DNA of 64,000 nt. It comes from Eledone cirrhosa. Its lineage: Eukaryota. The DNA lies in the NCBI GenBank assembly GCA_964016885.1, contig OZ024744.1, positions 52,638,001 through 52,702,000 on the forward strand, given 5' to 3'. This document shows, piece by piece, positions 2,709 through 63,425 of the stretch. A program made the translations under genes and the position numbers. The notes beneath the pieces are model-generated. The model was not told the origin of the DNA. It did not search any database and saw only the letters and a list, made by a program, of their open reading frames with translations. Each line of letters opens with the position of its first letter. Position 1 is the first letter of the stretch.

Positions 2709-2910
2709 GTTTTTTGTTTAAAATGAAATTTTGGGTACAAAACCCCAATAACTGGTTATTTAACCCCGAAGGGCCAAATAACGGACACAAAGACCCCTCT
2801 CACGAGGAGGAGGGTGTCTTTATCAACAATTTGGTTCAAGTTTTAAACAATTTACAATTCTTTTAACGGTTAAAAATTACTATACTTACAGAGCCGAGCC
2901 TCCGTCAACC

Positions 2911-2919
2911 ATGGCATTC

Positions 2920-2964
<45 letters not shown>

Positions 2965-5900
2965 GAAATGAATGAGAATGAACTTGCCAACTTGAAGGAT
3001 GAAATTATGATCGAATGGATGAAAATGAAAGAATCTGACATGGGGGAACGAGACACCCTCCCTAAGATCCAGAACTCCAAACAGAACCAAAAGATAATAC
3101 ACAAGACTAACATAATTCTCAAAAACATTATCATCACAAACAAAATAAACATTACTGACTTAAATCATCTCTATTATGCATCGGCTAAAGTCACCACTCA
3201 CTTATGTGGAGTGAAGATGAAAAAACAAAGGAATTCCCACAAGAAATCTACTTGGCAAGATAACATCAATCGCCAAATAAACCTTCTCCGATCTGACATA
3301 GAAATTTTAACAAACTATAAAGTAGGTGAACATGTTAAACAAACTAAACTTAGAAAATTGAAAAAAAAGTACAGTATAAGATCAACATGTGACATAGACA
3401 TGCTGATAGAAACAATCAAGCAAAAAGTGTCGGCCAAAGCTGCTCGTATAAGGCGCTTTGAAAAACGATCTAGATTCTATAAGGACAATAATATGTTCAA
3501 AAACAACCAAAGAAACTTCTACAGAAAAATTGGTAAGTCAACAATAACTGCTAAATCAATACCACCCAAGGAGGAAGTGCAAGAATTCTGGGAAAAGATC
3601 TGGGCCGAAGAAAAAGTTCATAACATACATGCCCCATGGATAGACAGACAAATGAAAGAAACAGCTCACCTTGAAGAACAAACATGGGAAAATATGACAG
3701 TTGAACAGCTGCGCTTGGCTCTAAGAAAAACCAGCAAATGGAAATCCCCAGGAAAAGACAAAATACAAAACTTTTGGATAAATGCCTTCACAGAGTCTCA
3801 TGAGCTGTTAGCCCAACTTTACAATGAAATAGTTAAGGAGCCAGAAAAGATACCATCATGGCTAGTTAACGGCATTACATTCCTGCTACCGAAGAATGAT
3901 GAGACAAACAATCCCAAAAATTACAGACCGATAACCTGCTTGACCACAATGTATAAAATGTTAACATCAGTCCTAACTGAATACACATATGACCACCTGA
4001 TAACAAATGACCTATTTCCATTGAGCAGAAAGGGTGTAAACGAGGCTCATATGGCTGTAAGGATCAGCTTCTGGTTAACAAAATGATACTGGAAGATTGT
4101 CATAATAGACACAAAAATCTATCGATTGCTTGGATAGATTATAAAAAAGCATTCGATAGTTTGCCACACAGTTGTATTGAAAAATGTTTAGAGATTTTCA
4201 AAATATCCCCCGTTGTCAGGAGGTTTTTGTCATTCAGTATGAGGACATGGAGAACGACACTCCTTTTGAATAGTGAAACAAAATCACTGGAAGCTGGAGA
4301 AGTTAACATTAATTGTGGAATTTTTCAGGGTGACTCTTTATCACCGCTTTTATTCTGCATCGCACTTATACCATTAAGTAAAATGCTCAATGAAACAAAA
4401 CATGGATATAGAGTCTATGACAAAACCATTAATCACCTGTTCTACATGGATGACCTGAAACTATTCGCAAAAAATGATGAACAATTGCAAGGGCTATTAT
4501 CCACTGTGAAGCAGTTCAGTGATGACATTAAAATGGAGTTTGGACTGGATAAATGCGCCAAAGCAACGTTCACCAGAGGAAAGCTGCTGAAGAGTTCAGA
4601 CATTAATCTTGATCGGGGGAACGTGATAAGAGAGCTTGATCAAGAACAAACTTACAAATATCTAGGTGTTTGTGAAGGAGACGGAATCAAGCACTCGACA
4701 ATGAGGGAAAGGATAAGGAAGGAATGTTACCGCAGAGTCAGAGCAATCTTAAGAACGGAATTGAATGCAAGGAATAGGATCGATGCCATAAACACGCTTG
4801 CCATACCAGTAGTAACCTACAGTTACAATGTCATCAACTGGTCAAGCACAGAGATCCGTAGGCTCGATACAAAAATCCGAAAATTCTTAACCATGCACAG
4901 AATGCATCACCCTAAGGCAGACATAGATAGAATATATCTCCCTAGGAAAGAAGGAGGACGTGGGTTAATCCAGTTAGACATTGCGTTGAAAACTGCAACA
5001 ATTGGATTATCCACATATCTAAGGGAATCACATGATTGGATGATCAAACTCGTTTTGAAACACGAAAGCACCAAAAGATCATATTCCATTACAAAAGATG
5101 CACAAAGATACAGTAATGGACTACAAATTTCAGAAGTCCCATTTACTGCTGAAATGGAAAACACAGAAAAAGCAAAGCAGGTAAAAGTAACTGCAAAGGA
5201 AGAACTGCTACAGAAACTGGCTAAGAAATGGCAAGAAAAGCCTCTGTATGGAAAATACCCAGAGCGAGCTAACAATCCTGATGTTGACAAAACTTTAACC
5301 CATCAGTGGTTGGCATCCTCTGGACTGAAATCGGAGACTGAAGGACTGATTATATCGGCACAAGATCAGTGTCTGCCAACAAAAAATTACCAAGCCAACA
5401 TAATAAAAAATGGGTGCAGCCCATTATGCCGTGTATGCAAAAAACAACCAGAGCCCATTGACCATATAATTTCAATGTGCAGTCCTATAGCTCCAACCGA
5501 ATACCTAAACAGGCATGACAGAGCTGCACAATACATACATTGGATAATGTGTAAGCATTTTGACCTGCCCCATCAAAAGAATTGGTGGGAGCATCAACCA
5601 CCTCCCATACTTGAAAAAGATCACATCTCAATCTTGTGGAACTTTAGCATCCAAACAGACCGAAAAATAGATGCAAATAGACCTGATATAATATTGAAGG
5701 ACTTTCAAAGGAGGGTATGCCTGCTAATTGATATGTCTGTTCCAATAGACAAGAATGTATCTATAAAAACATTTGAAAAATTGAGCAAGTATAAGGACCT
5801 GGAGATAGAAATTGGAAAAATGTGGAAATTGAGAACTAAAACAATACCAGTGGTTGTAGGCGCTCTGGGAATGATACCTAAGGGATCTAACGACTACTTA

Positions 5901-5993
5901 TCGCAAATCCCAGGAAACCCGCGTATAGGAGAAATACAAAAGATAGTACTAATGGGAACTGCCCATATACTAAGGAAGATCCTGTCAATATAA
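2911..5993 (+). pseudogene. RT-RLE ORF of Dong-like copy 1 (ORFs 2911..4086 + 4083..5993)
   Basis: Restoring one base at about 4021 gives ...[30 protein letters not shown]..., a conserved RT segment, and fuses the two ORFs. Confidence 0.85.
2920..2962 (+). repeat. (AAT)n microsatellite, target of the R4/Dong insertion
   Basis: Pure AAT repeat. The same repeat recurs at 6137-6177 and 8082-8101. Confidence 0.95.
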
Positions 5994-6135
5994 GTACATC
6001 ACAAGTCTAAACACTAAGGATGCATGTGTGAATATGTGTGTTCTTTCTTGAACATGGCGGACCTTGTTGTCTCTTGAGGTCACTGGTTGTGACTTGGTGA
6101 TAACTCGTATAAACATAAAGCAAGATAAATGCAAA
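2961..6135 (+). mobile_element. R4/Dong-clade RLE non-LTR retrotransposon, copy 1 (probably 5'-truncated, one frameshift near 4021)
   Basis: RT motifs [34 protein letters not shown] and FYMDD. C-terminal CRVC..HIISMC, RHD, PDIILKD and K..KY restriction-like endonuclease motifs. Flanked by (AAT)n, as known for Dong elements. Confidence 0.9.
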
Positions 6136-6177
6136 AAATAATAATAATAATAATAATAGTAATAGTAATAATAATAA

Positions 6178-8081
6178 TTCAGTATGAAGACATGGAAAAC
6201 GGCACTCCTTTTGAATAGTGAAACAAAATCAATGGAAGCTGGAGAAGTTAATATTAATTGTGGAATTTTTCAGGGGACTCTTTATCACCGCTTTTATTCT
6301 GCATCGCACTTATACCATTAAGTAAAATGCTCAATGAAACAAAACATGGATATAAAGTCTATGACAAAACCATTAATCACCTGTTCTACATGGATGACCT
6401 GAAATTATTTGCAAAAAATGATGAACAATTGCAAGGGCTATTATCCACTATGAAGCAGTTCAGTGATGACATTAAAATGGAGTTTGGACTAGATAAATGC
6501 GCCAAAGCAACGTTCACCAGAGGAAAGCTACTGAAGAGTTCAGACATTAATCTTGATCGGGGGAACGTGATAAGAGAACTTGATCAAGAAAAAACTTACA
6601 AATATCTAGGTGTTTGTGAAGGAGACGGAATCAAGCACTGGACAATGAGGGAAAGGATAAGGAAGGAATGTTACCGCAGAGTAAGAGCAAACTTAAGAAC
6701 GGAATTGAATGCAAGGAATAGGATCGATGCCATAAACACGCTTGCCATACCAGTAGTAACCTACAGTTACAATGTCATCAACTGGTCAAGCACAGAGATC
6801 CGTAGGCTCGATACAAAAATTCGAAAATTCTTAACCATGCACAGAATGCATCACCCTAAGGCAGATATAGATAGAATATATCTCCCTAGAAAAGAAGGAG
6901 GACGTGGGTTAATCCAGTTAGACATTGCGTTGAAAACTGCAACAATTGGATTATCTACATATCTAAGGGAATCACATGATTGGATGATCAAACTCGTTTT
7001 GAAACACGAAAGCATCAAAAGATCATATTCCATTACAAAAGATGCACAAAGATACAGTAATGGACTACAAATTTCAGAAGTCCCATTTACTTCTGAAATG
7101 GAAAACACAGAAAAAGCAAAGCAGGTAAAAGTAACTGCAAAGAAAGAACTGCTACAGAAACTGGCTAAGAAATGGCAAGAAAAGCCTCTGTATGGAAAAT
7201 ACCCAGAGCGAGCTAACAATCCTGATGTTGACAAAACTTCAACCCATCAGTGGTTGGCATGCTCTGGACTGAAATCGGAGACTGAAGGACTGATTATATC
7301 GGCACCAGATCAGTGTCTGCCAACAAAAAATTACCAAGCCAACATAATAAAAAATGGGTGCAGCCCATTATGCCGTGTATGCAAAAAACAACCAGAGACC
7401 ATTGACCATATAATTTCAATGTGCAGTCCTATAGCTCCAACCGAATACCTAAACAGGCATGACAGAGCTGCACAATACATACATTGGATAATGTGTAAGC
7501 ATTTTGACCTGCCCCATCAAAAGAATTGGTGGGAGCATCAACCACCTCCCATACTTGAAAAAGATCACATCTCAATCTTGTGGAACTTTAGCATCCAAAC
7601 AGACCGAAAAATAGATGCAAACAGACCTGATATAATATTGAAAGACTTTCAAAAGAGGGTATGCCTGCTAATTGATATGTCTGTTCCAATAGACAAGAAT
7701 GTATCTATAAAAACATTTGAAAAATTGAGCAAGTATAAGGACCTGGAGATAGAAATTGGAAAAATGTGGAAATTGAGAACTAAAACAATACCAGTGGTTG
7801 TAGGCGCTCTGGGAATGATACCTAAGGGGTCTAATGATTACATATCGCAAATCCCAGGAAACCCGCGTATAGGAGAAATACAAAAGATAGTACTAATGGG
7901 AACTGCCCATATACTAAGGAAGATTCTGTCAATATAAGTACATCACAAGTCTAAACACTAAAGATGCATGTGTGAATATGTATGTTCTTTCTTGAACATG
8001 GCGGACCTTGTTGTCTCTTGAGGTCACTGGTTGTGACTTGGTGATAACTCGTATGAACATAAAGCAAGATAAATGCAACTG
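6178..8081 (+). mobile_element. R4/Dong-like copy 2, 5'-truncated tandem copy
   Basis: Near-identical to about 4233-6135, with a 1-bp deletion at about 6275 (CAGGGGACTC versus CAGGGTGACTC). ORF 6258..7937 carries RT and RLE motifs. Bounded by (AAT)n on both sides. Confidence 0.9.
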
Positions 8082-30589: not shown

Positions 30590-30842
30590 TATATATATAT
30601 ATAAACAGAAAAAATGAAACGAAATTTCATTTCCCACTCTTAGTACGGCTGTTACTTAAATATAAGTATGTATAAGTACATACATATATGTTTACAGGTA
30701 TAGTAGTATGTATATATATAAATATAGACATAGAATATTCGAAAATATTCTGTATGTTTATAATAAACATTTTGAAGACCTAATCGCTATAGAATAGAAT
30801 ACGTCACGTATTACAATTAGATTCTCGATAAAAGCAAGGGAA

Positions 30843-30885
30843 GTAATCTACGCGTTTCATTCTCGTTAGAAATCATCAGGACTAC
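30843..30885 (-). ncRNA. Minimal type I hammerhead ribozyme (first of 13 minus-strand copies, period 310)
   Basis: The reverse complement reads GTAGTC-CTGATGA-TTTCTAACGAGAAT-GAAA-CGC-GTA-GATTAC. Confidence 0.8.
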
Positions 30886-33800
30886 ATATCCAGTGCTTTT
30901 ATCGAGAATGACACAGCTAGAGACTTATAGAATACTTAGCTGTGTACAGGAACTGGTTTGAAAGAGCGGTTGCCGGTCCGGCAGAAATTAGAAATTGGAA
31001 TAAATGCTCTGAAATAGCGATATATATGTGAATATAGACATAGAATATTCGAAAATATTCTGTATGTTTATAATAAACATTTTGAAGACCTAATCGCTAT
31101 AGAATAGAATACGTCACGTATTACAATTAGATTCTCGATAAAAGCAAGGGAAGTAATCTACGCGTTTCATTCTCGTTAGAAATCATCAGGACTACATATC
31201 CAGTGCTTTTATCGAGAATGACACAGCTAGAGACTTATAGAATACTTAGCTGTGTACAGGAACTGGTTTGAAAGAGCGGTTGCCGGTCCGGCAGAAATTA
31301 GAAATTGGAATAAATGCTCTGAAATAGCGATATATATGTGAATATAGACATAGAATATTCGAAAATATTCTGTATGTTTATAATAAACATTTTGAAGACC
31401 TAATCGCTATAGAATAGAATACGTCACGTATTACAATTAGATTCTCGATAAAAGCAAGGGAAGTAATCTACGCGTTTCATTCTCGTTAGAAATCATCAGG
31501 ACTACATATCCAGTGCTTTTATCGAGAATGACACAGCTAGAGACTTATAGAATACTTAGCTGTGTACAGGAACTGGTTTGAAAGAGCGGTTGCCGGTCCG
31601 GCAGAAATTAGAAATTGGAATAAATGCTCTGAAATAGCGATATATATGTGAATATAGACATAGAATATTCGAAAATATTCTGTATGTTTATAATAAACAT
31701 TTTGAAGACCTAATCGCTATAGAATAGAATACGTCACGTATTACAATTAGATTCTCGATAAAAGCAAGGGAAGTAATCTACGCGTTTCATTCTCGTTAGA
31801 AATCATCAGGACTACATATCCAGTGCTTTTATCGAGAATGACACAGCTAGAGACTTATAGAATACTTAGCTGTGTACAGGAACTGGTTTGAAAGAGCGGT
31901 TGCCGGTCCGGCAGAAATTAGAAATTGGAATAAATGCTCTGAAATAGCGATATATATGTGAATATAGACATAGAATATTCGAAAATATTCTGTATGTTTA
32001 TAATAAAAATTTTGAAGACCTAATCGCTATAGAATAGAATACGTCACGTATTACAATTAGATTCTCGATAAAAGCAAGGGAAGTAATCTACGCGTTTCAT
32101 TCTCGTTAGAAATCATCAGGACTACATATCCAGTGCTTTTATCGAGAATGACACAGCTAGAGACTTATAGAATACTTAGCTGTGTACAGGAACTGGTTTG
32201 AAAGAGCGGTTGCCGGTCCGGCAGAAATTAGAAATTGGAATAAATGCTCTGAAATAGCGATATATATGTGAATATAGACATAGAATATTCGAAAATATTC
32301 TGTATGTTTATAATAAACATTTTGAAGACCTAATCGCTATAGAATAGAATACGTCACGTATTACAATTAGATTCTCGATAAAAGCAAGGGAAGTAATCTA
32401 CGCGTTTCATTCTCGTTAGAAATCATCAGGACTACATATCCAGTGCTTTTATCGAGAATGACACAGCTAGAGACTTATAGAATACTTAGCTGTGTACAGG
32501 AACTGGTTTGAAAGAGCGGTTGCCGGTCCGGCAGAAATTAGAAATTGGAATAAATGCTCTGAAATAGCGATATATATGTGAATATAGACATAGAATATTC
32601 GAAAATATTCTGTATGTTTATAATAAACATTTTGAAGACCTAATCGCTATAGAATAGAATACGTCACGTATTACAATTAGATTCTCGATAAAAGCAAGGG
32701 AAGTAATCTACGCGTTTCATTCTCGTTAGAAATCATCAGGACTACATATCCAGTGCTTTTATCGAGAATGACACAGCTAGAGACTTATAGAATACTTAGC
32801 TGTGTACAGGAACTGGTTTGAAAGAGCGGTTGCCGGTCCGGCAGAAATTAGAAATTGGAATAAATGCTCTGAAATAGCGATATATATGTGAATATAGACA
32901 TAGAATATTCGAAAATATTCTGTATGTTTATAATAAACATTTTGAAGACCTAATCGCTATAGAATAGAATACGTCACGTATTACAATTAGATTCTCGATA
33001 AAAGCAAGGGAAGTAATCTACGCGTTTCATTCTCGTTAGAAATCATCAGGACTACATATCCAGTGCTTTTATCGAGAATGACACAGCTAGAGACTTATAG
33101 AATACTTAGCTGTGTACAGGAACTGGTTTGAAAGAGCGGTTGCCGGTCCGGCAGAAATTAGAAATTGGAATAAATGCTCTGAAATAGCGATATATATGTG
33201 AATATAGACATAGAATATTCGAAAATATTCTGTATGTTTATAATAAACATTTTGAAGACCTAATCGCTATAGAATAGAATACGTCACGTATTACAATTAG
33301 ATTCTCGATAAAAGCAAGGGAAGTAATCTACGCGTTTCATTCTCGTTAGAAATCATCAGGACTACATATCCAGTGCTTTTATCGAGAATGACACAGCTAG
33401 AGACTTATAGAATACTTAGCTGTGTACAGGAACTGGTTTGAAAGAGCGGTTGCCGGTCCGGCAGAAATTAGAAATTGGAATAAATGCTCTGAAATAGCGA
33501 TATATATGTGAATATAGACATAGAATATTCGAAAATATTCTGTATGTTTATAATAAAAATTTTGAAGACCTAATCGCTATAGAATAGAATACGTCACGTA
33601 TTACAATTAGATTCTCGATAAAAGCAAGGGAAGTAATCTACGCGTTTCATTCTCGTTAGAAATCATCAGGACTACATATCCAGTGCTTTTATCGAGAATG
33701 ACACAGCTAGAGACTTATAGAATACTTAGCTGTGTACAGGAACTGGTTTGAAAGAGCGGTTGCCGGTCCGGCAGAAATTAGAAATTGGAATAAATGCTCT

Positions 33801-34937
33801 GAAATAGCGATATATATGTGAATATAGACATAGAATATTCGAAAATATTCTGTATGTTTATAATAAACATTTTGAAGACCTAATCGCTATAGAATAGAAT
33901 ACGTCACGTATTACAATTAGATTCTCGATAAAAGCAAGGGAAGTAATCTACGCGTTTCATTCTCGTTAGAAATCATCAGGACTACATATCCAGTGCTTTT
34001 ATCGAGAATGACACAGCTAGAGACTTATAGAATACTTAGCTGTGTACAGGAACTGGTTTGAAAGAGCGGTTGCCGGTCCGGCAGAAATTAGAAATTGGAA
34101 TAAATGCTCTGAAATAGCGATATATATGTGAATATAGACATAGAATATTCGAAAATATTCTGTATGTTTATAATAAACATTTTGAAGAACTAATCGCTAT
34201 AGAATAGAATACGTCACGTATTACAATTAGATTCTCGATAAAAGCAAGGGAAGTAATCTACGCGTTTCATTCTCGTTAGAAATCATCAGGACTACATATC
34301 CAGTGCTTTTATCGAGAATGACACAGCTAGAGACTTATAGAATACTTAGCTGTGTACAGGAACTGGTTTGAAAGAGCGGTTGCCGGTCCGGCAGAAATTA
34401 GAAATTGGAATAAATGCTCTGAAATAGCGATATATATGTGAATATAGACATAGAATATTCGAAAATATTCTGTATGTTTATAATAAACATTTTGAAGACC
34501 TAATCGCTATAGAATAGAATACGTCACGTATTACAATTAGATTCTCGATAAAAGCAAGGGAAGTAATCTACGCGTTTCATTCTCGTTAGAAATCATCAGG
34601 ACTACATATCCAGTGCTTTTATCGGGAATGACACAGCTAGAGACTTATAGAATACTTAGCTGTGTACAGGAACTGGTTTGAAAGAGCGGTTGCCGGTCCG
34701 GCAGAAATTAGAAATTGGAATAAATGCTCTGAAATAGCGATATATATGTGAATATAGACATAGAATATTTTCGAATATTCTATGTCTATATTCACATATA
34801 TATCGCTATTTCAGAGCATTTATTCCAATTTCTAATTTCTGCCGGACCGGCAACCGCTCTTTCAAACCAGTTCCTGTACACAGCTAAGTATTCTATAAGT
34901 CTCTAGCTGTGTCATTCTCGATAAAAGCACTGGATAT

Positions 34938-34980
34938 GTAGTCCTGATGATTTCTAACGAGAATGAAACGCGTAGATTAC
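34938..34980 (+). ncRNA. Minimal type I hammerhead ribozyme (first of 6 plus-strand copies: 34938, 35248, 35558, 35868, 36178, 36488)
   Basis: Stem I GTAGTC/GATTAC, core CUGAUGA, stem II TTCT-AACG-AGAA, GAAA, and palindromic ACGCGT stem III. Predicted cleavage is after GUA at 34974. A distal 16-bp stem ATTCTCGATAAAAGCA/TGCTTTTATCGAGAAT extends stem I. Confidence 0.8.
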
Positions 34981-36759
34981 TTCCCTTGCTTTTATCGAGA
35001 ATCTAATTGTAATACGTGACGTATTCTATTCTATAGCGATTAGGTCTTCAAAATGTTTATTATAAACATACAGAATATTTTCGAATATTCTATGTCTATA
35101 TTCACATATATATCGCTATTTCAGAGCATTTATTCCAATTTCTAATTTCTGCCGGACCGGCAACCGCTCTTTCAAACCAGTTCCTGTACACAGCTAAGTA
35201 TTCTATAAGTCTCTAGCTGTGTCATTCTCGATAAAAGCACTGGATATGTAGTCCTGATGATTTCTAACGAGAATGAAACGCGTAGATTACTTCCCTTGCT
35301 TTTATCGAGAATCTAATTGTAATACGTGACGTATTCTATTCTATAGCGATTAGGTCTTCAAAATGTTTATTATAAACATACAGAATATTTTCGAATATTC
35401 TATGTCTATATTCACATATATATCGCTATTTCAGAGCATTTATTCCAATTTCTAATTTCTGCCGGACCGGCAACCGCTCTTTCAAACCAGTTCCTGTACA
35501 CAGCTAAGTATTCTATAAGTCTCTAGCTGTGTCATTCTCGATAAAAGCACTGGATATGTAGTCCTGATGATTTCTAACGAGAATGAAACGCGTAGATTAC
35601 TTCCCTTGCTTTTATCGAGAATCTAATTGTAATACGTGACGTATTCTATTCTATAGCGATTAGGTCTTCAAAATGTTTATTATAAACATACAGAATATTT
35701 TCGAATATTCTATGTCTATATTCACATATATATCGCTATTTCAGAGCATTTATTCCAATTTCTAATTTCTGCCGGACCGGCAACCGCTCTTTCAAACCAG
35801 TTCCTGTACACAGCTAAGTATTCTATAAGTCTCTAGCTGTGTCATTCTCGATAAAAGCACTGGATATGTAGTCCTGATGATTTCTAACGAGAATGAAACG
35901 CGTAGATTACTTCCCTTGCTTTTATCGAGAATCTAATTGTAATACGTGACGTATTCTATTCTATAGCGATTAGGTCTTCAAAATGTTTATTATAAACATA
36001 CAGAATATTTTCGAATATTCTATGTCTATATTCACATATATATCGCTATTTCAGAGCATTTATTCCAATTTCTAATTTCTGCCGGACCGGCAACCGCTCT
36101 TTCAAACCAGTTCCTGTACACAGCTAAGTATTCTATAAGTCTCTAGCTGTGTCATTCTCGATAAAAGCACTGGATATGTAGTCCTGATGATTTCTAACGA
36201 GAATGAAACGCGTAGATTACTTCCCTTGCTTTTATCGAGAATCTAATTGTAATACGTGACGTATTCTATTCTATAGCGATTAGGTCTTCAAAATGTTTAT
36301 TATAAACATACAGAATATTTTCGAATATTCTATGTCTATATTCACATATATATCGCTATTTCAGAGCATTTATTCCAATTTCTAATTTCTGCCGGACCGG
36401 CAACCGCTCTTTCAAACCAGTTCCTGTACACAGCTAAGTATTCTATAAGTCTCTAGCTGTGTCATTCTCGATAAAAGCACTGGATATGTAGTCCTGATGA
36501 TTTCTAACGAGAATGAAACGCGTAGATTACTTCCCTTGCTTTTATCGAGAATCTAATTGTAATACGTGACGTATTCTATTCTATAGCGATTAGGTCTTCA
36601 AAATGTTTATTATAAACATACAGAATATTTTCGAATATTCTATGTCTATATTCACATATATATCGCTATTTCAGAGCATTTATTCCAATTTCTTATGTAT
36701 ATATATATATACATACATGCACACATACATATATGTACGTATGGATTCACCGAACATTT

Positions 36760-37889
<1,130 letters not shown>

Positions 37890-37903
37890 AGAGAGAGAAA
37901 GAC

Positions 37904-39269
37904 TAATGCCAACTTAGTCATGGCATACTTAGAAGTCCAGATTTATGAACAGTCCAAATCAAAATACGGGTTAAACTTCCACAAATATTTATCAGAGAAT
38001 TGGAAACGCTACTTGGATGATTGTCTCATTCTTTGGCCCCACACACTCGACCAACTGAATGATTTCAAAAATTTAATAAACGGTATCAATAAGCACATCC
38101 AATTAACAATGGAATACAGCCAAGATCAACTCCCATTTCTGGACATCTTAATCTTTAAAAAAGACACAAATATTGAAACTGACATACACTATAAACCAAC
38201 AGATTCCAAACAATACCTGCTATTCACCTCCAACCACCCAAAGCACACGAAGACGAACATTCCTTTTAACCTAGCAAGAAGAATTTGCACAATTGTCTCC
38301 AATTATGAAACGCGAAATAAAAGACTTCAAGAATTAAAGGAAATTCTACTCGAAAGACAGTACCCACCACTACTAATAAATAATGGAATAGAAAGGGCTA
38401 AAATAATAGGCATTGATGAATTACGAAAACAGAAACAAATTCAAGGTACGTCCAATTTCTATCATATATCTCAACACACAACCCAAAAAATGCGGAAGCT
38501 TACAACACTATTCACAAGGAAATCCCACTACTGAAACAAGACCCAAGAATGAAAAAAGCCCTTGAAACACCCAAAATAATCAAAAGCAAAAGACAACCGA
38601 AATCACTGAAAAAATTACTCACCAATGCCAAATTACCTACCACAAACCCACAAGTAACTGTCAAAAAATGTGGTCGCTCTAATTGTGGGACCTGCACTCA
38701 CGTCATTGAAGGAAATACGTATACATTTAAATCAGGACAAAATATTGCTGTAAAAAATCACTTCACTTGCTCATCAAAAAATCTAGTTTATTCCAATAAG
38801 TGTAAAGGATGCAATGAAGATTATATAGGACAAACTAAACTCACACTCAGAAATAGAATGAGAGTTTATCGCCAACAATTACGAGATCCAACCACGAGAC
38901 AGATACCACTAAGCGCACATCTAGACATTTGCGCAAGTAATAAGACACCCGAATTCCAAGTGTTCCCATTTTATCCAAGCGCTGACAATACAACAGAACA
39001 AATACGAATAAATAAGGAAAATATGTTTATTCCAAAATATAGACCAGCATTAAATATGGTTTAATATACATTATGTCAACACCATAACATGCTAACCATC
39101 CAAACAGACACCTACACACACACATAACACCTACTTTAGAAAATAAAAACCCGAACTAAATAAACCTTAACATACGTTTGCGCTGACAATACGACAGAAC
39201 AAATATGTTCATTCAAAAATATTCCTACTAACGGAATCATTTTCCTACACACACACACACGCACGCACG

Positions 39270-54879: not shown

Positions 54880-55380
54880 TTATTTAGTGTTTGTTCCTGA
54901 CTTTTTGCGAGGCTTGGAATATAGAGGAAGCTTTATGAAGGCAATTTGAGAATAATTCACTTTTTTGTTAATTAAATTATCATAATTAGTAATTATTAAT
55001 AGGGTCTCCATGGTACAGAGATTGCAGTTAGGTGATATTGACGAATTCGAGTATAGTCGACTATTACACAGATTCGACCAAGAAATCAAGTACTTTAAAT
55101 TTTTGTCTTTTAACGACCATATAAATTGTGATAAAGAAGTCGAAGATTTCCTATTAGGATTCGAAAAAGAGTATTTATGATTCGCAAATCTTAATTTAAA
55201 TGTCGATGAAGTTGCACCAATGTAGTTGTATGTGATCTTATTTGCTTTTACGGTGCATTTATAGACCAGATTGCTATCCAGACAATTATTTTGCAGAGGG
55301 CAATTTGATCTATTTCTACAATTACATTTCGATTTCTTGTTATTATTATAAATTGGACAATTGACATTAATATTGTTAGT
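54880..55380 (-). pseudogene. GIY-YIG endonuclease domain of PLE (no start codon, truncated)
   Basis: Manual translation: CNCRNRSNCPLQNNCLDSNLVYKCTV...YIGATSSTFKLRFANHKYSF...STSLSQFIWSLK...CNLCTMETLLI. Confidence 0.85.
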
Positions 55381-55449
55381 ACTTTGAAGTGTTCTATTGA
55401 TTGTGCTTAGTACTTTGAAGTGTTCTATTGATTGTGCTTAGATCAATGT

Positions 55450-55801: not shown

Positions 55802-55872
55802 CGACGTACATGGGACACGAACCCATATCTTTGGTTTGCAGGACCAATGTGTTATCATTACACCAACACGCC
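55802..55872 (-). tRNA. tRNA-like cloverleaf (anticodon TGC, Ala-like), probably the head of a SINE
   Basis: GGCGTGT-TG-GTGT AATGATA ACAC-A-TTGGT CCTGCAA ACCAA-AGAT-ATGGG TTCGTGT CCCAT-GTACGTC. The D, anticodon and T stems pair, while the acceptor stem has three G-U pairs. Downstream sequence is a dispersed repeat. Confidence 0.55.
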
Positions 55873-60085: not shown

Positions 60086-61640
60086 CTACCAGTCTAACGC
60101 GGTGATTGTCGAAATTGTTACAGCATCGAAGAGGAGATACTTTGCAGTATTTATCCTGTCCTTCGAATTTAAATCACGTCCTGGCTTACTCGGGTGACAG
60201 ATATAACGGACGCAGTTTAACATCACCACCTGGTTCTTGAACGCCGTTAACGTAGCTAAAAGTGTTGAAAGCATTCTAATCAGGCCACTGGTTTGGGATT
60301 GCACTTTCCGCTCCCAGACACCTGTTTTGAAGGCCTTGATAGATGGATACAGGGACACAACATCCATACTGCCTATTATGCAGTTTGTTAGGTCCCCAGA
60401 TCGGTTACTCGCGCCGATTCTGCTGAGGAGGTCCTCCGTGCTGTCACATACATCTGGGGACATCTCAATGATGGGGCGTATGATCAGGGAGAGGAAGTAG
60501 GACAGTCTGTAGTTACTAGCAATGTTAGCTCCACAGACTGGCCGTTACTGATTGCGGATTTGGTACGGGTGATGAGAAATGTGTCCCGCATGTGCAACCC
60601 CGAAGAACTAGAGAGACACATACAACACTTCATCCACCGTATGCAGTTCTCTGGCTACAATCAGAGAGATAGAATCAGAGTGTATAGAGGAGCCAGAACC
60701 AAATGGGAAAAAATGGTAAATAATGACATAAATGGGACCTGTCCCTTGTATAGGAGCAAATTTTGGAATAGAATAGAAAGAACTAGGAACAAGGCCAATA
60801 GAATAAACTCATGGTATGATAGCAATAAATACCAGAGTGTAATGTTCATCAATACAACCCCTAGAGGCGAACTAGCCTACAAATTTAGAAGGGCCCTAAA
60901 TAAACATAAACTCAATATTAAGATAGTAGAAAGACCAGGTACCTCCGTAAAAACACTTATTAGCAAGACATACCCGTTCCAAAGACCCTCATGTATAGAT
61001 AAGAAATGTATAACCTGTAAAATAAGCCCCCATATTAACTGTAAAACTAGAAATGTAGTGTATAGCATAAGATGTACTGAAGGACAATGTAGAAACAAAA
61101 ATATAGTGTACATAGGTGAGACAGCTCGTAGTATAGGGGAACGAATAAATGAACACTGGCGAGACCTTCAAGATAATAAAGAATCATCTGTGCTCTACCA
61201 ACATGCTAAGATAGAACACAGGGGTAGATTAGAGAACATAGAAATAAAAATAGAATCCACACACAGAAAAGATGCAATGTTTAGGCAAATTACAGAGGCA
61301 GTAAGCATAAAAGAATTACAACCAAAATTAAATAGAAAATATGAGTGGAACAGCAACATCACAACTTACAATTAAGGACAAAATGAAAACACACACACAC
61401 ATAGAACAAACAACCAACCAACAATAAATAAATAAATAAATAAACAAATAGATAAATGAACACAAACACACACAGACACCCGGATGTGGCGCATGCGCAA
61501 ACTGAGCACACAACACACACACAGAAACAAAATGGCGTAGGATAGAAGAAAGGAAAGGCACAGAAACAAAGAAAGGAATCCCCAGTCACTGAAGAGGTCA
61601 CAGAGTGTGTGACGAAAGGACTATGACTATATATAAACAA
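60086..61640 (+). mobile_element. Penelope-like element with inverted 5' RT segment
   Basis: Minus strand 60545-60330 reads RPVCGA...CIIGSMDVVSLYPSI (RT motif A). Plus-strand ORF 60560..61375 has RMQFSGY, CIDKKCITC, and NVVYSIRC..YIGETARSIGERINEH (GIY-YIG). The pLTR carries a hammerhead. Confidence 0.85.
61584..61628 (+). ncRNA. Minimal type I hammerhead of the upstream PLE
   Basis: AGTCA-CTGAAGA-GGTCAC AGAGTGT GTGAC-GAAA-GGAC-TA-TGACT. Confidence 0.75.
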
Positions 61641-61857
61641 CTATCTGGTTGTGGAACCAACCAACCAACCAGAAATTTATAAGTTTGTAGATTTGTAAAT
61701 TTATAAATTTATAAATATATAATAAATTGAAGTGAAAGCAACTGGTGCGTGTGTTTCTTATTGGCAACATGACCCTCCCAAAGTATAACAATATATATTT
61801 ATACTTATATATATATATATTATGTGTGTGTGTGTGTACATTTGTATATATAAACAC

Positions 61858-63425
61858 ATCACCGTATCACAACCGCAAACGCATACGAGGGCGCCCGCCG
61901 CAACAAAACCTCAATGGGCATGAATCACAACCCACTTATAGCAGTGCACAAAACAGCAATGTTAAAACTGCACGGAATAACACCTCAAACTGCAATTGTC
62001 ACCTACGAGATAGGTGCATTGATTCGAGCCTAGTGTACATGTGTACGGTGAACTCGGGCAACTCCACTTGGCATTACACTGGATCCACCGCGGGTACGTT
62101 TAAAAAAAGATGGTATGTGCACAGACATTCGATGAAGAACCGTGCACTAATAGGTTCTACAACCCTCGCCAAAAAAATCTGGGAACTTAAGGACAATAAC
62201 ATCGACTACAATATCAACTGGTCGAGGTTGTCGGCCACAAGGGCATATAGTACCGGTATGTCCTATTGTAGGCTCTGCGATCTTGAATTACTGTATATCC
62301 TTAGGAACGATAAAAGGCTACTCAACAACAAAATAGAAAGGTCAATTTTCTGCAAACAAGATCGCTACTAAATTCACAAGATTTAAGCCACCGTGATTCG
62401 AACCAACATAACTTAGCCTTCAACATATGAAATCCGCACTCTTACACAGACCACCACAGAACTATAATATTTTTTAAACAGCTTCTAGCCTCCTTAATTC
62501 TATACCACAGTAATGTCTGCAAATATCTTATCAACCCATAAATATATCTCTTCCCGGCTGCGGTCAACACCACCTCATCACATTAGCACTCATAATTTTC
62601 AACAGATGAACTTAATTCTAAGTACATTATTTTACTACTACCACAGTCCTTGAAATATCACCTTCCTCCTGTTGTTATAATGAACACCCCAATGTATCTG
62701 TAATAGTATCCATCATGTTCTCTATATATATCTTGCTTACTTAACCTCTGTATTGTCTTATTGCCTATATTGTTGTTATTGTTATCTTATTCATGCATGA
62801 TTTGTTATTGAAGCTGTGAAAGCTAAACAACCCCCATGATTCGAACTAACAATCCCTACATGTAATATAGACCACTTAAATAATGAATCCACTTTACACC
62901 GCATAAAAATTACCATCCTCACTACGATGAAAATATTTTATCTGTCAGATAATAAATAAATCTTACGGTCAGCAAACCTACAGTAAAGTAAATGGCCCAT
63001 TGTTTCAAGCCCCAGGTTATATCTACACTATATATATTGTACCCCACGACAGTCTTCACATGTCAATTTCATACATCTGTTTCGTATCAGTTCGTTTTAC
63101 ATGCTAAAGTCATCAGTGTACTCTATTTCTTACTTAGATTGATGTGATTATTTTAACTATTTACTATCTAGCTAATTTATTTGAGTATTGTTATTATTGT
63201 CCTGATTTAATGCCACTACTATATATAGAAGCCATGCCTGTGTATATCCTTCATTCTCGCATGCTCTGATGAATAGACTGGTTATAACAAAGTATTGGTG
63301 ATCGATTGACGCAAAAACAGGCGGGTAGCGATCTCTAGACCTACCAGTTCAGAGAAACAATTGTCAGCAACGTGAATAAAGCCCTTATTGTATAGCAAAC
63401 CATATCACTCTTCTTTCTTGATTTA
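61858..63425 (+). mobile_element. 5'-truncated Naiad-like PLE (GIY-YIG variant + long 3' UTR + pLTR)
   Basis: CNC..RCIDSSLVYMCTV..YTGSTAGTFKKRW..H..STTLAKKIWELK..Y..CRLCDLE, stop at 62371. Hammerhead at 63262-63369. Confidence 0.8.
63262..63369 (+). ncRNA. Hammerhead with an enlarged stem-loop II
   Basis: TGCT-CTGATGA-[~80 nt, GACTGGT/ACCAGTT pairing]-GAAAC-AATT-GTC-AGCA. Confidence 0.55.

Follow-up and report, generated by a model that had tools for sequence, protein, structure and literature searches.

The array of a 310-bp repeat at positions 30721-36693 of the window (the whole stretch of Eledone cirrhosa DNA that was analysed, 64,000 nucleotides) runs for 13.1 copies in one direction and then for 6.2 copies in the reverse direction, with the two arms head-to-head. 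It is one young insertion of a non-coding repeat with a hammerhead motif. We suggest, at a probability of about 0.7, that it arose by two-ended insertion, in which a Penelope-like reverse transcriptase (RT) would have started at two sites on one probably circular RNA, and the two resulting cDNAs would have been joined by microhomology. The features of the locus are given below; unit positions are counted from the base that follows the predicted ribozyme cut, with 34975 as position 1.

30707-30720, plus strand: left copy of a candidate target-site duplication, 14 bp of impure TA microsatellite (low complexity, so a candidate only)
30721-34769, RNA sense on the minus strand: left arm, 4,049 bp, 13.1 tandem copies, outer end at unit position 128 (S, the short end)
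32850-36693: palindromic stretch whose mirrored arms measure 1,920 bp each (32850-34769 versus 34774-36693), with a 4-nt spacer and 3 mismatches
34762-34769: 8-nt microhomology at the inversion joint, formed by the 5' stem of the unit hairpin (unit positions 98-105 in the right arm, 117-110 in the left arm)
34762-36693, RNA sense on the plus strand: right arm, 1,932 bp, 6.2 identical tandem copies, outer end at unit position 169 (T, the tail end)
34770-34781, plus strand: hairpin loop (4 nt) and 3' stem, borne by the right arm
34938-34980, plus strand: predicted type I hammerhead ribozyme of one unit, which is predicted to cut between 34974 and 34975 (deduced from its sequence and fold)
36654-36693, plus strand: Penelope-type 'tail' of 40 nt (unit positions 130-169), the excess of the right end over the left end
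36694-36707, plus strand: candidate target-site duplication, right copy, 14 bp; the identical 14-mer adjoins both array ends

The inversion of the array is a confirmed, real feature of this locus. An earlier note on this DNA had placed it at the unit's own hairpin, and the 42-mer that it quoted is indeed found at 34751-34792, where it folds into a perfect 19-bp hairpin with a TTCG loop; the joint uses an internal inverted repeat, as the note had stated, namely the 8-bp stem AGAATATT/AATATTCT that every unit carries. Arms of 1.9 kb on each side, also claimed there, are a correct description of the mirrored part (1,920 bp) but not of the array, which is lopsided (4,049 versus 1,932 bp), while the statement that the two blocks point apart in ribozyme sense is borne out by the hammerhead sense, which diverges from the joint. 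The units are nearly uniform, with four single-base changes in the left arm and none in the right. The three mismatches of the mirrored part are single-unit changes that all lie in the left arm and lack a mirror counterpart. A palindrome of kilobase size per insertion, with a spacer of 4 nt at this locus, is a likely source of local instability.

The unit is 310 bp long, has a GC content of 34% and is non-coding; the array holds no open reading frame (ORF) of 150 amino acids. Sequence and fold together outline a hammerhead motif that consists of stem I, CUGAUGA, stem II, GAAA and a one-pair helix III with a palindromic CGCG loop. A hammerhead was not scored in the unit by an Rfam scan at either gathering or loose thresholds. 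The fixed variants of the family avoid the hammerhead core, and stems I and II are mostly kept or improved by them (read by hand). The one-pair helix III and the palindromic tetraloop are shared with the axolotl ribozyme HHR_Amex1 as it is described in the available text of PMC7229834, according to which a motif of this kind cleaves well, in axolotl, only as a dimer. By its sequence features, the 310-bp repeat files as an animal non-LTR retrozyme with putative cleavage and putative RNA circles. Six loci (L060, L100, L117, L121, L048, L068) carry fixed insertions or changes at unit positions 2-3, right after the predicted cut, which are perhaps marks of circle ligation. The sequencing run X1 yields a 340-nt cyclic contig, a product that tandem DNA would give as well. 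Two raw Hi-C runs, in which the organism may not be represented, yielded no reads of the unit.

A pattern search for one ribozyme haplotype found 4,033 exact matches in the 3.0-Gb genome. The first 100 of these matches fall into ten loci on contig C1; nine of them are inverted like the array in the window, with differing turn spacings, and a TA run is present at one or both ends of all ten, which had been chosen by the ribozyme alone. The subsequent census searched for array ends adjoining TA runs (first 100 matches per pattern, C1 up to 134 and 128 Mb), and since these later loci were chosen with a TA requirement, the TA bias is based on the ten ribozyme-picked loci. It showed the repeat to be dispersed: C1, up to 134 Mb, holds 87 insertions. 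This set leaves out the window itself, four loci that had been picked for the hairpin (L048-L051), and L058, L066 and L105 (overlaps); L052, L047b and L067 are excluded from its joint counts, and of the local duplicate formed by L076 and L077 both members are in the set, with L077 removed from later counts. Among the 87 sampled insertions on C1, 14 run in a single direction and 73 are inverted, each of the latter head-to-head (73/73), so that inversion is the rule for this family. Extrapolated from this one contig, with patterns that miss impure flanks, the genome would hold about 1,600 inverted insertions. Putative target-site duplications are difficult to recognise; they were scored at 10 of 67 loci, in comparison with 2.0 in shuffled pairs, although two of the ten are doubtful and the flanks are periodic. 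The unit is also present at high depth, with the same variants, in the independent short-read run X5, which supports the family, not this particular joint. Four runs labelled as other organisms (X2, X10, X16, X20) contain the unit at low depth; X2 has no listed difference, the other three carry variants of this genome, and the contigs are most simply explained as traces of DNA of the same species. Horizontal spread is therefore unsupported, because these low-depth contigs in runs labelled as other organisms carry this genome's own variants (287A, 295A).

The most informative feature of the family, which the earlier note had missed, is that the insertions have two different, fixed outer ends. 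At all 72 inverted loci for which both ends could be scored, one end lies at unit positions 118-139 (S) and the other at 157-172 (T); the modes are 130 and 139 for S and 165 for T, the window has 128 and 169, and none of the 72 loci carries ends of one kind twice. For most loci one of the two ends had been fixed by the search pattern, so that the other end is the informative one; the ten loci chosen through the ribozyme alone follow the same pattern. Of the 14 single-direction insertions, 11 terminate at S and 3 at T, so each of the two sites can serve alone as a 3' end. Five exceptions (L191, L201, L206, L209, L214) occur among 32 further loci that were fetched for joints at inverted repeats, and one of them, L201, has two T ends. 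The family thereby displays the insertion signature of Penelope-like elements: a head-to-head inverted copy (73/73) and a tail of 30-40 bp at one end only. In the available text of PMC8557442 and PMC3846280, endonuclease-bearing Penelope-like elements are described with an inverted, 5'-truncated copy, a one-sided tail of 30-40 bp and TA targets, and the former calls the mechanism behind such inverted, tailed insertions undefined.

The joints between the arms are evenly spread round the unit (p=0.51), and so are the offsets between the arms. This does not support the special role in inversion that had been implied for the hairpin, given that other loci invert almost anywhere in the unit. Nor is the predicted ribozyme cut favoured by the joints (3 of 150 ends, in comparison with 7.3 expected), and we consequently reject the joining of linear monomers at this cut as the main route. 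Two arms overlap or abut at 51 of 64 joints, and the other 13 contain inserts of 1-23 nt, with the unit haplotype of each locus used for its own joint; L040, L075, L088 and L127 are excluded from these microhomology and insert counts. The joints lie on 0-5 nt of microhomology, and an overlap of at least 2 nt is found in 31 of the 51 overlap joints (9.3 expected). The six inserts of at least 6 nt each contain 6-13 nt of unit sequence, an observation made without a chance control. An overlap of 8 nt is expected in only about 0.07% of random joints, and the one at the joint in the window is therefore more than chance.

Exact head-to-head joints at the hairpin used in the window number 6 genome-wide, about 20-fold over random joining. 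Three other inverted repeats of the unit are enriched 23- to 33-fold: a neighbouring 8-bp repeat with 10 such joints genome-wide, a 9-bp repeat with 8, and a 16-bp repeat, whose arms are 57 and 221 nt apart, with 18, two of which represent a local duplicate. Tail-to-tail joints were searched for genome-wide at the 16-bp repeat and at the hairpin and numbered 0 and 0, a polarity of 24 to 0. The hairpin accounts for well under 1% of the joints and is no more used than other inverted repeats; it acts as an 8-nt microhomology. The counts (6, as opposed to 8, 10 and 18 elsewhere) lead us to reject it as the cause of inversion. As to the randomness of the breakpoints, which the earlier note had raised, the answer is thus divided, because their spread is even but the hairpin is used about 20-fold more often than random joining would give, as are the other repeats. 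The hairpin joint in the window is a rare, minority outcome of the probable Penelope-type two-ended insertion practised family-wide; it is a useful special case, not a separate phenomenon. What the locus adds is a test of the hairpin by way of repeat-joint counts, polarity and nesting.

The two arms of an insertion share their haplotype. Twenty-four haplotypes are found among 74 loci, of which 28 are identical to the unit in the window and thus uninformative in this respect; of the variants that are fixed in one arm, 113 of 116 are also fixed in the other (three are not). Several haplotypes are private to one locus, and their variants occur in every unit of both arms (e.g., 219T in L050 and 232C in L112). 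Such variants imply a bottleneck of one unit just before each insertion, as would be given by a monomer circle that is copied round and round. Arms longer than one unit make up 89% of the total, and this, together with joints that lie off the ribozyme cut, is as a template without ends would give. The template was probably one circular RNA, and the copying of circles by a Penelope-like RT has already been proposed for animal retrozymes in the Discussion of PMC7229834. Some events used multi-unit or mixed templates. At L096 and L113, a one-unit variant is common to both arms in the same template register (compared by hand), a pattern more easily explained by a template of several units than by a monomer circle. 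At L080 (C1 near 61.29 Mb), 276G is present in all 7 units of one arm but in only the 2 joint-adjacent units of the other, a mixture of haplotypes that reflects a template switch or conversion between the arms. Furthermore, repeated single-unit variants in the long arms of L108 and L064 show that these arms grew after insertion, as possibly did units 4 and 9 of the left arm in the window; post-insertion growth of this kind weakens arguments from arm length.

These data also bear on a linear alternative, which we consider unlikely, in which the template for priming from both ends would have been a long linear RNA read through from an older array, or in which unequal crossing-over would have enlarged an initially short insert, in either case without an RNA circle. 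It would accommodate the one-unit variant that L096 and L113 share in register and the later expansion of L108 and L064; local amplification after insertion has been proposed in a recent preprint as far as its available text goes (bioRxiv 10.64898/2026.07.22.740005), and Poseidon, a Penelope-like element, operates in vitro without a need for hammerhead cleavage, with unprocessed RNA as its main substrate (PMC11167929). However, locus-private variants that are fixed in all units of both arms would still require a one-unit bottleneck, and any local expansion would have to affect both arms alike.

The geometry of the arms separates priming from both target ends from fold-back self-priming, in which a target-primed cDNA would snap back at a hairpin or microhomology and be copied into the second arm, with the second end resolved at the other site. 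A copy made by fold-back can neither exceed nor leave its template, the first arm; yet 14 of 66 loci, and 6 of 30 repeat-joint loci, have arms of which neither fits within the other in whatever register, and these non-nested loci argue against a fold-back. This set additionally excludes L108 and L119, together with ten repeat-joint loci that are complex or cut. The non-nested arms of L220 measure 61 and 78 nt and, being shorter than one unit, are not explained by later expansion. Of 70 loci, 33 have the longer arm on the S side and 37 on the T side. Under fold-back, the loop-bearing arm would be the first one made; by a hand count over three local hairpins it exceeds its partner at only 13 of 24 loci, and in the window it is the shorter one (1,932 versus 4,049 bp). 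Joint offsets are even instead of small (5 of 67 within 40 nt), and single-unit variants are rarely found in both arms (7 of 105 types, 71 of which lay in the mirrored span).

Fold-back would, to be sure, produce the same head-to-head polarity and the same shared haplotype, and hairpin joints are enriched. Palindromes at the inverted joints of Penelope elements are read as self-priming on an antisense template in the available text of PMC3846280, the one paper that a literature search on this point brought up; L051 has an exact fold-back shape, and L048 has a variant mirrored about its hairpin joint. The lengths of the two arms show a correlation (rho 0.29, p 0.019, n 66), which also fits two enzymes moving together on one RNA, and arms in the same register are found in an excess that is borderline (19 versus 13.4 expected, p 0.053). 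All 6 joints at the hairpin used in the window have their loop on the T arm; this bias did not hold over three hairpins together, with 15 of 22 (p 0.13). Fold-back self-priming may make some joints, a minority, but as the general explanation it is improbable. Of the two routes that the earlier note had offered, the annealing of two cDNAs from the two target ends fits the family data (non-nested arms at 14 of 66 loci, head-to-head arrangement at 73 of 73), and the fold-back template switch is disfavoured by the same non-nested loci. At L208 (C3 near 15.50 Mb), arms of 3,017 and 3,028 bp meet in the same register at a 9-bp hairpin joint, resulting in a near-perfect 6-kb palindrome that has one S and one T end.

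Assemblies are known to be at risk of error in palindromes, and an array of this shape could in principle be created from a fold-back chimeric read or through the joining of two unrelated arrays. We consider this very improbable, because the flanks of the array differ and yet share the 14-bp direct repeat, the mirror ends inside the array at the T site, three left-arm variants are unmirrored, one S and one T end are found in 72 of 72 loci, and the polarity at two repeats is 24 to 0. A case of this kind may be L191 (C3 near 155.93 Mb), which is mirrored beyond the unit: its units break at position 292, in the loop of stem II, and the same foreign sequence follows on both sides, possibly through another element that inserted into the repeat or through a true fold-back. 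The later inversion of a plain tandem array by recombination at the unit's internal inverted repeat would put the joint exactly where it is, but is hardly credible, as it needs two joints of opposite polarity where each locus has one, tail-to-tail joints are absent (0) at both repeats tested, and, in RNA sense, a 3' end stands at each outer border.

With two-ended insertion as the preferred reading, the following course of events can be envisioned. A Penelope-like RT would cut a TA microsatellite and prime on both strands of the target, starting at two sites, one near position 130 and one near 165, of a single 310-nt RNA that is probably circular. This circle would be copied round and round, yielding the tandem arms, and the annealed 3' ends of the two cDNAs would be joined by microhomology, which in the window would have been provided by the 8-nt stem of the unit hairpin. 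The hairpin matters in this process only because any inverted repeat in the RNA lets two cDNA ends pair. Biochemical precedents come from the Poseidon protein of the anole, which nicks and extends both strands of AT-rich DNA in vitro, begins copying at two internal RNA sites, the boundaries of the tail, and is a predicted dimer (PMC11167929). More tentatively, one can imagine a dimeric, two-headed Penelope RT that would cut both strands of the TA repeat, place one head on each of the two sites 35 nt apart, roll round the circle more or less in step, and leave the cDNA ends to be joined at whatever inverted microhomology they meet. If true, such an enzyme would account for three features of Penelope elements in general, namely the pseudo-LTR in inverted orientation, the tail at one side and the palindromes at joints; it would replace the self-priming model and make rolling-circle reverse transcription the route by which animal retrozymes spread.

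The non-coding unit has no ORF for the RT plus GIY-YIG endonuclease of an autonomous Penelope-like element. It does not truly resemble any of the 60 loci that represent two Penelope-like families (queried with 54880-55434 and 38420-39061, 30 loci each, in a genome that has young families of this kind and many more than these two) or the window's own fragments; its matches to the two families are AT-rich chance matches only. Because the unit matches none of these 60 loci, the nature of the enzyme is deduced solely from the footprint of the insertions.

The window also contains several other mobile elements. A frameshifted RT-GIY-YIG fragment of the Penelope/Poseidon type lies at 37839-39064 on the plus strand; numerous nearly identical copies of its family have open frames of about 775 codons, so the family looks recently active, and the first 430 nt after the ORF are CA-rich, without a hammerhead core by eye. 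Further Penelope-like fragments are located at 54880-55437 (minus strand), 60392-61375 (plus strand) and 61736-62371 (plus strand), with a GIY-YIG hit for 60392-61375 and recognition by motif for the other two. Hammerhead-like motifs occur at about 61579 (plus strand) and about 41902 (minus strand), and a near-perfect inverted repeat of about 70 bp (41075 on the plus strand, 41130 on the minus strand) matches the hammerhead regular expression on both strands. A non-LTR retrotransposon with an RT domain, whose 3' part is partially duplicated in tandem, occupies 2782-7937 (plus strand), and a tRNA-like sequence at 55802-55872 (minus strand; 52 bits) may be the head of a SINE.

Among known systems, the animal non-LTR retrozymes come closest to the repeat itself. 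As far as the available texts of Cervera and de la Pena (2020; PMC7229834) and of Li, Clavereau and Pollet (2026; bioRxiv 10.64898/2026.07.22.740005) describe them, they are, like the Eledone unit, non-coding, 150-450 bp in length, low in GC and arranged in dispersed tandem arrays with one type I hammerhead per unit; RNA circles and cleavage have been seen there, whereas the motif of the Eledone family is predicted from its sequence. A word search of the main texts on retrozymes found no two-armed inverted arrays, fixed end sites or joint microhomology, though supplements, in particular Fig. S9 of PMC7229834, may show inverted copies. The link between retrozymes and a Penelope enzyme rests on co-occurrence and sequence likeness, the 2026 preprint arguing, in its available text, from co-occurrence and likeness to the pseudo-LTR.

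With endonuclease-bearing Penelope-like elements, as they are portrayed in the available parts of PMC8557442 and PMC3846280, the 310-bp family has in common the head-to-head inversion, the tail at one end, the TA targets and the palindromes at some joints. It differs from them in that it has no ORF and that its arms are tandem runs which can reach tens of units each. The Penelope footprint is thus already known for autonomous elements, and here it is found on a non-coding, retrozyme-type repeat. About 1,600 two-armed insertions of one short unit make end sites, joints, polarity, nesting and haplotypes countable, and the counts favour priming from both ends over the published reading as self-priming: where the available text of PMC3846280 takes joint palindromes as a sign of the latter, the arm geometry of the 310-bp family speaks for the former. 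They also point to a minimal substrate for a reconstitution, namely an RNA of 310 nt whose start sites lie near 130 and 165.

The Poseidon element of the green anole behaves in vitro (Frangieh et al. 2024; PMC11167929) much as we infer here, in that both strands are nicked and extended at AT-rich sites from two internal starts. No difference in start site between its two target strands was seen, however, whereas different sites are used at the two ends in the 310-bp family (72/72); an inverted product or a circular template is not discussed for Poseidon in that study. Among the literature titles listed, none joins Penelope with twin priming as its subject. Twin or dual priming of L1, in the account given by the available text of PMC2837659, resembles the insertions of the 310-bp family in its two cDNAs from two target ends, its head-to-head fragments within one duplication and its joint microhomology. 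In L1, however, the position of the second priming varies and there is no overlap between the fragments, while the 310-bp family has two fixed sites with 35 nt between them, completely overlapping arms, and inversion as its usual outcome (73/87).
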